The notes under the pieces: model-generated | The model's input: the letters and a program-made list of their open reading frames with translations, nothing else | The model's database searches: none | What the model was told of the DNA's origin: nothing | Translations under genes and position numbers: made by a program | IMG/VR virus record: IMGVR_UViG_2737471855_000014 | Reading direction: 5' to 3' (one strand) | Origin: a virus | Taxonomy: Duplodnaviria; Heunggongvirae; Uroviricota; Caudoviricetes | DNA: 6,370 nt | In this document: positions 1,933 to 6,275 of the stretch, piece by piece | How positions within the stretch are numbered: the first letter of the stretch is position 1 | Layout of the letters: each line of letters starts with the position of its first letter

Positions 1933-2182
1933 GGTAATATTAAATCGGAACATTTACATCGCGGAATGTAAAATTTAAATAAAAAGGACTCTTCCATGAG
2001 CCAAAATTCCTGAAATCTTAAGGGTAAGATAAAAGGTCTTAATCAGAATGACACGTTTTATTAATAAATAAAGCTATTCTTTCATTGCTGTGTTTTTCTT
2101 TACAAAAGTAATCCTTGCTATGGGTGGTTAATCATGCGTTAATGGTGTTCTGGTTTGTTACAAATTTATCTGAAGCAGTCAT

Positions 2183-2191
2183 TGTTATAAT
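2183..2191 (+). promoter_or_regulatory. candidate extended -10 promoter element (TGnTATAAT) upstream of cspI
   Basis: TGTTATAAT at 2183-2191, a perfect TATAAT with upstream TG, in an AT-rich leader. It would give a roughly 95-nt 5' UTR before cspI, in line with the long leaders of cold-shock genes. No good -35 hexamer at 17 bp spacing. Sequence pattern only. Confidence 0.3.
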
Positions 2192-2294
2192 TTTATTATT
2201 TGTACCTCTTGAGATTTCCTTGTTGGTTTTTCTCTCTGATATTTTTTTTCGGACCATTCTGCCCAAGGGCTAATTTCTTCAAAAGGTAATAATT

Positions 2295-2507
2295 ATGTCT
2301 AACAAAATGACTGGTTTAGTGAAATGGTTTAACCCTGAAAAAGGTTTTGGTTTCATCACGCCGAAAGATGGCAGCAAAGATGTGTTTGTCCATTTCTCAG
2401 CAATTCAGAGCAACGATTTCAAAACATTAACTGAGAATCAGGAAGTTGAATTTGGTATTGAGAACGGACCTAAAGGTCCTGCCGCTGTTCATGTAGTGGC
2501 GCTTTGA
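2295..2507 (+). CDS. cspI: cold-shock protein, CspA family (S1-like cold-shock domain)
   Basis: 70-aa [73 protein letters not shown] with RNP1 (KGFGFI) and RNP2 (VFVHF) motifs. AAGGTAA Shine-Dalgarno-like sequence upstream. Matches my recollection of Qin CspI. Confidence 0.9.
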
Positions 2508-2711
2508 GGTAGACAATATTACAAACCATATTCACTTTAGATGCCCGTGTTGTCATGGTTCCCAGTATAGAACATCATCTTTTGATGTTTCTGACATGAA
2601 TCCTTTCGGGGCAAAATGTATCTTTTGTAAATCAATGATGATTACATTTGATAATATTTCACAATACTTAAATGCCAGCCGTCTGTCGTTGGATTTAAAA
2701 AAGTGAAAATG

Positions 2712-2736
2712 AAGGCTCCTTCGGGAGCTTTTTTGC
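2712..2736 (+). terminator. rho-independent terminator (UUCG-tetraloop hairpin plus T-tract)
   Basis: GGCUCC (2714-2719), UUCG loop (2720-2723), GGAGC (2724-2728), extendable by A-U pairs at 2712/2713 with 2730/2731, then a T-run through 2734. Lies 6 nt after the stop of the Cys4 frame and about 200 nt after cspI. Confidence 0.5.
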
Positions 2737-2778
2737 TTGGTGTCTATTCGATGGATACTCACATACTACGGTAACATC

Positions 2779-3009
2779 ATGAAAAAAATCATAGTTTTTT
2801 TTAACTCTGAACCAGCAGTGGTAGTGCCAGCGATGACTGGAGTTAACACCATCATGCGTGAATATCCAAATGGCGAAAAAACACACCTTACTGTAATGGC
2901 CGCAGGGTTTCCATCTCTGACCGGAGATCATAAAGTCATTTATGTAGCCGCGGATCGACATGTTACTTCAGAAGAAATTCTGGAAGCAGCAATAAGGCTC
3001 TTGAGTTGA
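2779..3009 (+). CDS. hypothetical small protein (possibly the ynfN-equivalent; start uncertain)
   Basis: ATG at 2779 gives 76 aa (MKKIIVFFNSEPAVVVPAMTGVNTIMREYPNGEKTHLTVMAAGFPSLTGDHKVIYVAADRHVTSEEILEAAIRLLS). The track's 2737 start is a TTG. Internal ATGs at 2833 and 2854 would give 58 or 51 aa. No strong Shine-Dalgarno at any of them. The gene lies between cspI and gnsB, where K-12 Qin carries ynfN, but I cannot confirm the sequence. Confidence 0.45.
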   Translation: MKKIIVFFNSEPAVVVPAMTGVNTIMREYPNGEKTHLTVMAAGFPSLTGDHKVIYVAADRHVTSEEILEAAIRLLS

Positions 3010-5401: not shown

Positions 5402-5700
5402 CCGGTGCACATACCCATTCGATGACATTTGTTTCAGGTGGTTCCAGTGGTGCTCCGGGAAGTGGATCACCTGATTATTCTAAATACAGTGTTAACACTT
5501 CTTCTGCAGGCGCTCATACGCACTCTGTATCGGGTACTGCTGCAAGCGCAGGTGCACACGCACATACTGTCGGTATTGGTGCTCATACGCACTCCGTTGC
5601 GATTGGTTCACATGGACATACCATCACCGTTAACGCTGCTGGTAACGCGGAAAACACCGTCAAAAACATCGCATTTAACTATATTGTGAGGCTTGCGTAA
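5392..5700 (+). pseudogene. C-terminal fragment of a side tail fibre protein (Stf-like), possibly still translatable from a fortuitous ATG
   Basis: 102-aa frame with repeated G-A-H-T/A-H-S/T motifs and the conserved fibre C-terminus ...[24 protein letters not shown]. The N-terminal shaft portion of the fibre is absent. The stop overlaps the tfa start (TAATG at 5698-5702). Confidence 0.7.
5404..5622 (+). repeat. tandemly reiterated HxH tail-fibre repeat units (coding repeats)
   Basis: Five related 18-21-nt units encoding G-A-H-T-H-S-like peptides: GGTGCACATACCCATTCG (5404-5421), GCAGGCGCTCATACGCACTCT (5506-5526), GCAGGTGCACACGCACATACT (5548-5568), GGTGCTCATACGCACTCC (5578-5595) and GGTTCACATGGACATACC (5605-5622). 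Confidence 0.6.
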
Positions 5701-6275
5701 TGGCATTCAGAATGAGTGAACAACCACGGACCATAAAAATTTATAATCTGCTGGCCGGAACTAATGAATTTATTGGTGAAGGTGACGCATATATTCCGCC
5801 TCATACAGGTCTGCCAGCAAACAGTACCGATATTGCACCGCCAGATATTCCGGCAGGCTTCGTGGCTGTTTTCAACAGTGATGAGGCATCGTGGCATCTC
5901 GTTGAAGATCATCGGGGTAAAACGGTTTATGACGTGGCATCAGGGGACGCGTTATTTATTTCTGAACTCGGTCCGTTACCGGAAAATGTTACCTGGTTAT
6001 CGCCGGGAGGGGAATATCAGAAGTGGAACGGCACAGCCTGGGTGAAGGATACGGAAGCAGAAAAACTGTTCCGGATCCGGGAGGCGGAAGAAACAAAAAA
6101 CAGCCTGATGCAGATAGCCAGTGAGCATATAGCGCCGCTTCAGGATGCTGTGGATCTGGAGATCGCAACGGAGGAAGAAACCTTGTTGCTGGAAGCCTGG
6201 AAAAAGTATCGGGTGTTGCTGAACCGTGTTGATACATCAACTGCACCGGATATTGAATGGCCAGCACTGCCGTAG
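5700..6275 (+). CDS. tfaQ: tail fibre assembly protein (lambda Tfa-like chaperone)
   Basis: 191-aa [54 protein letters not shown]..., which closely matches my recollection of lambda Tfa along its length. The start overlaps the stop of the fibre fragment. Ends at TAG 6273-6275. Confidence 0.85.

Follow-up and report, generated by a model that had tools for sequence, protein, structure and literature searches.

In Escherichia coli, AUU is a very poor initiator, and in infC and pcnB, two genes of this bacterium that are initiated by it, the conserved non-canonical start keeps or regulates low translation; the AUU of infC gives the autoregulation of IF3. Two small genes adjacent to cold-shock genes belong beside these: their products, YmcF and YnfQ, were reportedly found in a proteomic study of cold-shocked cells (D'Lima et al. 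2017, J Proteome Res 16:3722), and the same authors are said to have mapped both ATT starts through mutagenesis. YmcF, encoded 3' of cspG in E. coli K-12, is like YnfQ in several respects: (i) it is also 62 aa long, is 66% identical to YnfQ and has the CPCC...CIFC motif, the difference between the two proteins lying in their C-terminal 15 residues; (ii) ymcF, like ynfQ, has an ATT start 10 nt past the csp stop, ymcF's stop being embedded in TAAGG; and (iii) both genes are followed by a hairpin after the stop. Another small protein of the Qin prophage, YnfU, resembles YnfQ in its paired Cys knuckles, which have been described as two CPXC zinc knuckles (bioRxiv 10.1101/511675).

The DNA studied here, a stretch of 6,370 nucleotides from a virus of the class Caudoviricetes (hereafter the window), carries an open frame just downstream of cspI, and we are confident that it is ynfQ of the E. 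coli Qin prophage, a real gene and one that is already catalogued, not new. E. coli K-12 strains match the window with 100% identity over 521 bases around the frame (2280-2800), and the annotation under this match lists cspI, a 'cold shock small protein' named ynfQ or ymcF, ynfR and ynfN. In an MG1655-derived RefSeq record (L001) the ynfQ CDS occupies 1739-1927, equivalent to window 2518-2706, and the gene order is ydfR, rrrQ, rzpQ, cspI, ynfQ, ynfR, ynfN, gnsB, ydfO and ynfO, a neighbourhood that is the Qin lambdoid prophage. Since this CDS begins at the ATT at 2518, the public annotation already has the non-canonical start. The product, (M)TNHIHFRCPCCHGSQYRTSSFDVSDMNPFGAKCIFCKSMMITFDNISQYLNASRLSLDLKK, is a cysteine-rich protein of 62 aa whose exact sequence is the UniProt entry YNFQ_ECOLI and is present on at least 1000 contigs. 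It is matched over residues 1-62 of 62 by Pfam PF23641 (YmcF-like), with 111.8 bits against a cut-off of 27 and E = 1.7e-32; the NCBI family name for this type of protein is 'cold shock small protein YmcF'. The features of the locus, in window coordinates, are the following:

2149-2534, plus strand: cspA-type thermoregulator mRNA element (5' leader plus cspI; Rfam RF01766), reaching the first ynfQ codons
2295-2507, plus strand: cspI, annotated cold-shock protein gene and first cistron, an ORF of 70 aa
2497-2517, plus strand: open, non-coding stretch 5' of the annotated ynfQ start, comprising the last 11 nt of cspI and a 10-nt spacer
2506-2509, plus strand: GAGG, Shine-Dalgarno-like element 8 nt 5' of the ATT, overlapping the cspI stop TGA (2505-2507)
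2518-2520, plus strand: start codon of ynfQ, an ATT (AUU) with which the annotated CDS opens
2518-2706, plus strand: ynfQ CDS, 62 codons plus TGA (RefSeq WP_071524604.1, 'cold-shock protein')
2596-2706, plus strand: ORF of 36 aa from an ATG, the sole in-frame ATG/GTG/TTG
2709-2774, plus strand: ynfR, annotated, 21 aa (MKAPSGAFLLGVYSMDTHILR), starting 2 nt past the ynfQ stop
2711-2734, plus strand: intrinsic-terminator-like hairpin (GAAGGCUCC-UUCG-GGAGCUUUU) plus U run, from RNA folding

The initial annotation had delimited the frame as 2497-2706 from the letters of the DNA, and what it observed there was borne out in full. The frame is open from after the TAG at 2494-2496 to the TGA at 2704-2706, and retranslation (69 residues) reproduced the earlier hand translation exactly; the interval proved to be coding from 2518 onwards, whereas its first seven codons (2497-2517) lie outside the gene. 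The upstream in-frame stop is 4 to 95 codons away in the homologues. As the ORF list confirms, the only in-frame ATG, at 2596, lies 3' of the first Cys cluster, upstream of which the frame offers nothing but two ATT codons (2518 and 2530); the two Cys clusters, CPCC and CIFC, are indeed 22 residues apart. A candidate that we had to set aside concerns the name: VanOrsdel et al. 2018 used 'YnfQ' for another gene, of 37 aa, located between ydfJ and ydfK and apparently the one now listed as ynfT, so the ribosome-profiling statement made there does not apply to the window locus.

A protein search returned 132 homologues, every one of them a PF23641 protein, from Escherichia, Citrobacter, Salmonella, Klebsiella, Raoultella, Kosakonia, Enterobacter, Yokenella and others, and also from phages. 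The sense frame of ynfQ is the only one of the six to be open in all distinct homologues (71/71), the remaining five having a mean of 1.9-4.9 stops over the same sequences. Variable columns at codon positions 1, 2 and 3 number 20, 14 and 44, respectively, of 45 codons; mean pN is 0.10 against a pS of 0.82 (codons 2-46; pS saturated), and dN/dS for the family is 0.03-0.11 where calculable. The YnfQ protein is under strong purifying selection across the Enterobacteriaceae and their lambdoid phages, and the conservation analysis proposed at the outset as a check on the frame has thus come out in its favour. Frame length by itself is no proof here, because the ORF list of the window holds many spurious ORFs of similar size; what places ynfQ above chance is its conservation, with the frame open in 71/71, together with the PF23641 match. 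The antisense ORF of 69 aa at 2553-2762 (minus strand) was rejected as a shadow ORF, since it is open in only 6 of the 71 homologues; its wobble positions line up with those of ynfQ.

The start codon was compared across 77 sequences, namely 75 fetched loci, the window and the MG1655-derived record; for this, 80 of 311 genome loci were fetched, one genome per species, with the start placed at position 1501 in L002-L081. Across the roughly 20 enterobacterial genera represented, ATT stands at the position of codon 2518 in 53 of these sequences, ATC in 4 and ATG in 20. Among 53 distinct upstream sequences, A+1 and T+2 of the start codon are invariant, and so very nearly is the AGG ahead of it (A at -11, 53/53; G at -10, 50/53; G at -9, 53/53), the Shine-Dalgarno-like motif of csp-linked loci reading T[AG]A-GG without exception. 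The second ATT, at 2530, is excluded as the family start because CTC takes its place in the paralogue ymcF (L058). The suggestion of a small protein with a non-canonical start was right: the RefSeq CDS runs from the ATT at 2518, the codon is ATT, ATC or ATG in 77/77 sequences, and the spacing is conserved. Intact versions initiated by ATG, which the initial annotation had recommended looking for, do exist, at the same codon, in 20 genome loci and one Morganella phage. Judged by these comparisons, ATT 2518, a non-AUG codon, is the predicted site at which translation of ynfQ starts.

Other readings of the same DNA deserve consideration. That other genera have ATG at the very codon where the window has ATT, and that the window offers no canonical start 5' of the first Cys, could be taken to mean that an ATG start was lost in the prophage and that a silent remnant of the gene survives in the cspI 3' UTR. 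Such decay, one of the possibilities raised initially, is extremely unlikely, because the dN/dS is purifying (0.03-0.11) and the frame is never closed, being intact in 71/71 distinct homologues; moreover, ATT/ATC is the majority state (57/77), shared by numerous genera and by ymcF and ynfQ of E. coli alike, the ATT-started ymcF is a core gene present in 5417/5426 complete E. coli genomes, and an intact identical copy occurs in all of the 80 viral contigs compared, out of 396. On the same grounds of dN/dS and a frame open throughout, the reading of a mere coincidence in the cspI 3' UTR has virtually nothing left to recommend it. ORFs of similar length are common in the window, the antisense one included, and the Rfam cspA model extends to 2534, so one might suppose that an RNA element, not a protein, is behind the conservation; the Rfam match, however, spans just the first 17 nt of ynfQ, third positions are variable in 44/45 codons against 20 first and 14 second positions, no other frame stays open among the homologues, Cys, Gly and Pro residues are invariant, and the protein matches a curated Pfam family. 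We find it scarcely credible, too, that the real product is the 36-aa peptide from the sole canonical codon, ATG 2596, even though the corresponding ORF (2596-2706) figures in the ORF list: it would drop the best-conserved residues (5-25), including the CPCCHGSQYR knuckle, which is invariant or nearly so, M27 is unconserved with a consensus of K at that position, and no Shine-Dalgarno-like motif was noted in the sequence 5' of 2596.

A frameshift had been offered as the other way of dispensing with an ATG, and the end of cspI, GCG CUU UGA G, does contain CUU UGA, the core of the prfB +1 shift site. A prfB-type programmed +1 frameshift at CTT TGA (2502-2507) would produce a CspI-YnfQ fusion instead of, or besides, the free 62-aa protein: the +1 frame from TTT 2503 is that of ynfQ, and the sole stop in that frame, the TAG at 2494, sits 5' of the shift site. 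As a conserved mechanism this is rejected, because neither the frame relation of csp to ynfQ nor the last csp codon is conserved. CTT TGA occurs in 7/49 csp-linked loci, the others having CTC, CGC, GTA, CGT or CTG followed by TAA/TGA, and in six Kosakonia-type loci, where the gap is 9 nt, the small gene shares the frame of csp. Kept in so few loci, the CUU UGA at 2502-2507 is probably coincidental. Furthermore, an AGGGGG-like, Shine-Dalgarno-like stimulator is absent 3 nt 5' of the CUU, where the sequence is GUAGUGGCG, twenty loci without an intact adjacent csp begin with ATG at the same codon, and the published tagged product is reportedly small, which counts against a fusion. Frameshifting is in our view very unlikely, although a small amount of a CspI-YnfQ fusion might still be made in K-12.

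We return to YnfQ as a free protein of 62 aa. In an alignment of 45 sequences the core, IHFRCPCCHGSQYRTSxFD...NPFGAKCIFCK, hardly varies and the C-terminus is variable; two of the cysteines, C12 and C37, never change, and three more (C9, C11 and C34) are kept in 90% or more of the sequences. The YnfQ of the window, a protein of about 62 aa, has all the invariant and nearly invariant columns, IHFRCPCCHGSQYR...NP.GAKCIFCK, and its two knuckles are C9-P-C11-C12 and C34-I-F-C37. The 'Cys4 zinc-ribbon-like' character attributed to the frame from the start holds for the cysteines, of which C9, C12, C34 and C37 vary little or not at all; the fold matches behind a ribbon are non-significant. A PDB profile search with YnfQ returned no significant match, and the top matches in the fold searches, also non-significant, were the TFIIE-alpha zinc finger 1vd4 and large-subunit ribosomal proteins of eukaryotes and archaea. 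The AlphaFold2 model, for which the alignment served as input, reaches a mean pLDDT of 71, with 79-87 over residues 11-40, and contains short strands and a C-terminal helix (44-58). One database source gives a phage homologue (P0008) the name 'TFIIE alpha FINGER'. The NCBI family NF047912, 'ECs_2282 family putative zinc-binding protein', to which YnfU is assumed to belong, matches YnfQ weakly (E = 0.0024, residues 5-49), and membership was rejected at 17.8 bits, under the cut-off of 37.

YnfQ is probably a Cys4 zinc-knuckle protein, its metal binding being putative on the basis of its sequence. The N-terminal 45 residues would form a small metal (probably Zn) knuckle or ribbon through C9/C12 and C34/C37, to be followed by the variable C-terminal helix, and in cold adaptation the likeliest partner of this metal module would be a nucleic acid or a protein. 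Searches of PHROGs found no family for YnfQ, and a profile search against 1.84 billion cluster representatives yielded just 41 clusters, indicating that the YnfQ/YmcF family is narrow; no distant relative of known function was identified among those representatives.

Several lines of evidence tie ynfQ to the cold-shock transcript. RF01766 matches over the whole of the model (positions 1-428 of 428; E = 4.5e-29) and scores 112.8 bits where 78 is the gathering score, which indicates that cspI has a cold-responsive leader, and a pattern scan found no promoter-like site between cspI and ynfQ. At the other end, the UUCG hairpin seen initially just past the end of the frame is there, beginning 4-7 nt after the stop and followed by a U run; it folds with -14.9 kcal/mol (z = -2.65), the pattern scan recovers its stem at 2715-2728, and most homologues have a GC-rich hairpin and T run directly 3' of the stop. 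In published transcript data, the induction ratios of cspI, ynfQ and ynfN are almost the same (6.5/4.3/38, 5.9/4.0/42 and 5.8/9.9/51, respectively), and ynfQ is called 'Qin prophage, cold shock induced' (PMC11228462); elsewhere, ymcF and ynfQ drop together with cspG, cspH and cspI (PMC11728337). The same YnfR sequence has been described, with ynfR between ynfN and cspI, and YnfR-SPA goes strongly up after cold shock (PMC6001520), which implies that the hairpin is leaky or read through; it is no tight terminator, because ynfR and ynfN, both downstream of it, are co-induced. It may be added that ynfR overlaps the hairpin, its first codons being the terminator-like hairpin itself.

We infer from this arrangement that ynfQ would be the second cistron of the cspI mRNA and that, this mRNA having a cspA-type cold leader, YnfQ would be made upon cold induction of cspI. 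Its accumulation after cold shock is a prediction from the upstream element and the co-regulation of the transcripts. The AUU start would hold YnfQ output low relative to CspI, and might be served, by way of the GAGG, either through weak direct initiation or through re-initiation by ribosomes that have just finished cspI at the stop codon overlapping this element.

Two further features of the window may be recorded. The ynfN ORF (2780-3009, plus strand) is intact, with 76 aa, and its whole length matches phrog_3425 (7e-54); in the MG1655-derived record, by contrast, PGAP labels ynfN a pseudogene with a frameshift. A shorter version, of 51 aa, corresponds to phrog_4911 and also to the 156-nt ynfN CDS of phage Tritos, and the length of the gene is inconsistent between annotations. 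At 6043-6241 (plus strand), within a tail-fibre-assembly-like ORF (5700-6275), there is a full-length match to Rfam IS009 (RF02111; 221.5 bits).

The relation between the start codon and the neighbouring csp gene is a small new point, which we offer as a lead and not as a result, because the sampled loci are phylogenetically non-independent. The small gene lies directly 3' of csp on the same strand, with a gap of 9-10 nt, in 47 of the 77 sequences (45 loci, the window and the MG1655-derived record), and all 47 have ATT or ATC, whereas the 20 loci with ATG all lack an intact csp next to the small gene. The latter belong to at least three lineages: the Klebsiella oxytoca group with Raoultella; Citrobacter sedlakii; and Silvania, Leclercia and Enterobacter. 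Recognisable remnants of csp coding or 5'-leader sequence lie upstream of some ATG versions (L008, L022 and L035): they occur in C. sedlakii and in the one Raoultella and one Klebsiella locus tested, and so in two of the at least three ATG lineages. There are exceptions, however: ten Pseudescherichia and Atlantibacter loci have ATT without a csp upstream, those of Atlantibacter with an additional ATG at codon 2, and the Morganella phage IME1369_01 (L084, 1150-1345) has an intact csp, a 9-nt gap and ATG. The phage rules out a strict rule by which an adjacent csp means a non-AUG start, and together with the ten ATT loci it shows that any coupling is no strict rule. The phage homologue is shorter (47 codons), more distant and unannotated in the phage record.

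It is possible, and we put it forward tentatively, that AUU/AUC is a selected feature of the csp-coupled layout and not just a defect that is tolerated, with re-initiation after the csp stop, and that decay or loss of csp leads to AUG. Ribosomes ending at the csp stop within the Shine-Dalgarno-like U(A/G)AGG would re-initiate 10 nt on, at the AUU. If this coupling is true, YnfQ/YmcF output would be a small fixed fraction of Csp translation, and a gene whose csp decays or is lost would have to recruit its own ribosomes and shift to AUG. In Pseudescherichia and related loci that keep ATT in the absence of csp (L017, L019, L020, L023, L025, L027 and L051, around 1475-1510), an 8-codon upstream ORF (ATG AAA AAA GGA TAC TAT TAT TAC TAA) overlaps the ATT in L017 and L020 and stops 5 nt inside the gene, near-identical sequence being present in L019, L023, L025, L027 and L051; this ORF could be a coupling cistron in place of csp.

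The family is carried by phages as well as by prophages. Free lambdoid phages, among them Tritos and 2H10, have the cspI-ynfQ-ynfN-gnsB module 3' of their lysis genes, and 396 viral contigs encode a YnfQ relative; in the 80 of these that were compared, the copies are identical to the window gene and add no new diversity. Four of nine matching phage records leave the homologue (93-98% identical) unannotated, namely LR595862.1/NC_049950.1 (2H10), LR597641.1 (mEp460_ev081), PV340562.1 and PV340573.1, presumably because gene callers reject ATT starts. Two loci labelled as metagenome-assembled genomes of Veillonella parvula and Mucilaginibacter (L003 and L057) have a ynfQ/ymcF gene and upstream sequence identical to E. 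coli loci, and their labels probably reflect binning contamination.

These observations make ynfQ a worked example of a conserved non-AUG gene that can be recognised from sequence alone, the signs being Cys knuckles in an open frame, an upstream stop overlapped by a Shine-Dalgarno-like element, and a hairpin after its own stop. Genes of this kind are still overlooked, as the homologue left unannotated in at least four deposited phage genomes illustrates, and the link between the start codon and the adjacent csp provides a cheap, testable hypothesis on how YmcF/YnfQ expression is set.

Set against the systems described above, ynfQ and ymcF occupy paralogous neighbourhoods, cspI-ynfQ-ynfR-ynfN-gnsB and cspG-ymcF-ymcE-gnsA, and differ in their distribution: while ymcF is core chromosomal (5417/5426 complete E. 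coli genomes), ynfQ is prophage cargo, the cspI-ynfQ locus being found in 2145 of the 5426. At the protein level, two Cys pairs about 22 residues apart, as in YnfQ, are also found on the short beta-hairpins of zinc-ribbon/rubredoxin-knuckle modules (1vd4, ribosomal proteins), and the putative likeness lies in the Cys pattern. As for the start codon, we know of no regulator of ynfQ, and this gene differs from infC in that its AUU sits 10 nt past a heavily translated upstream cistron.
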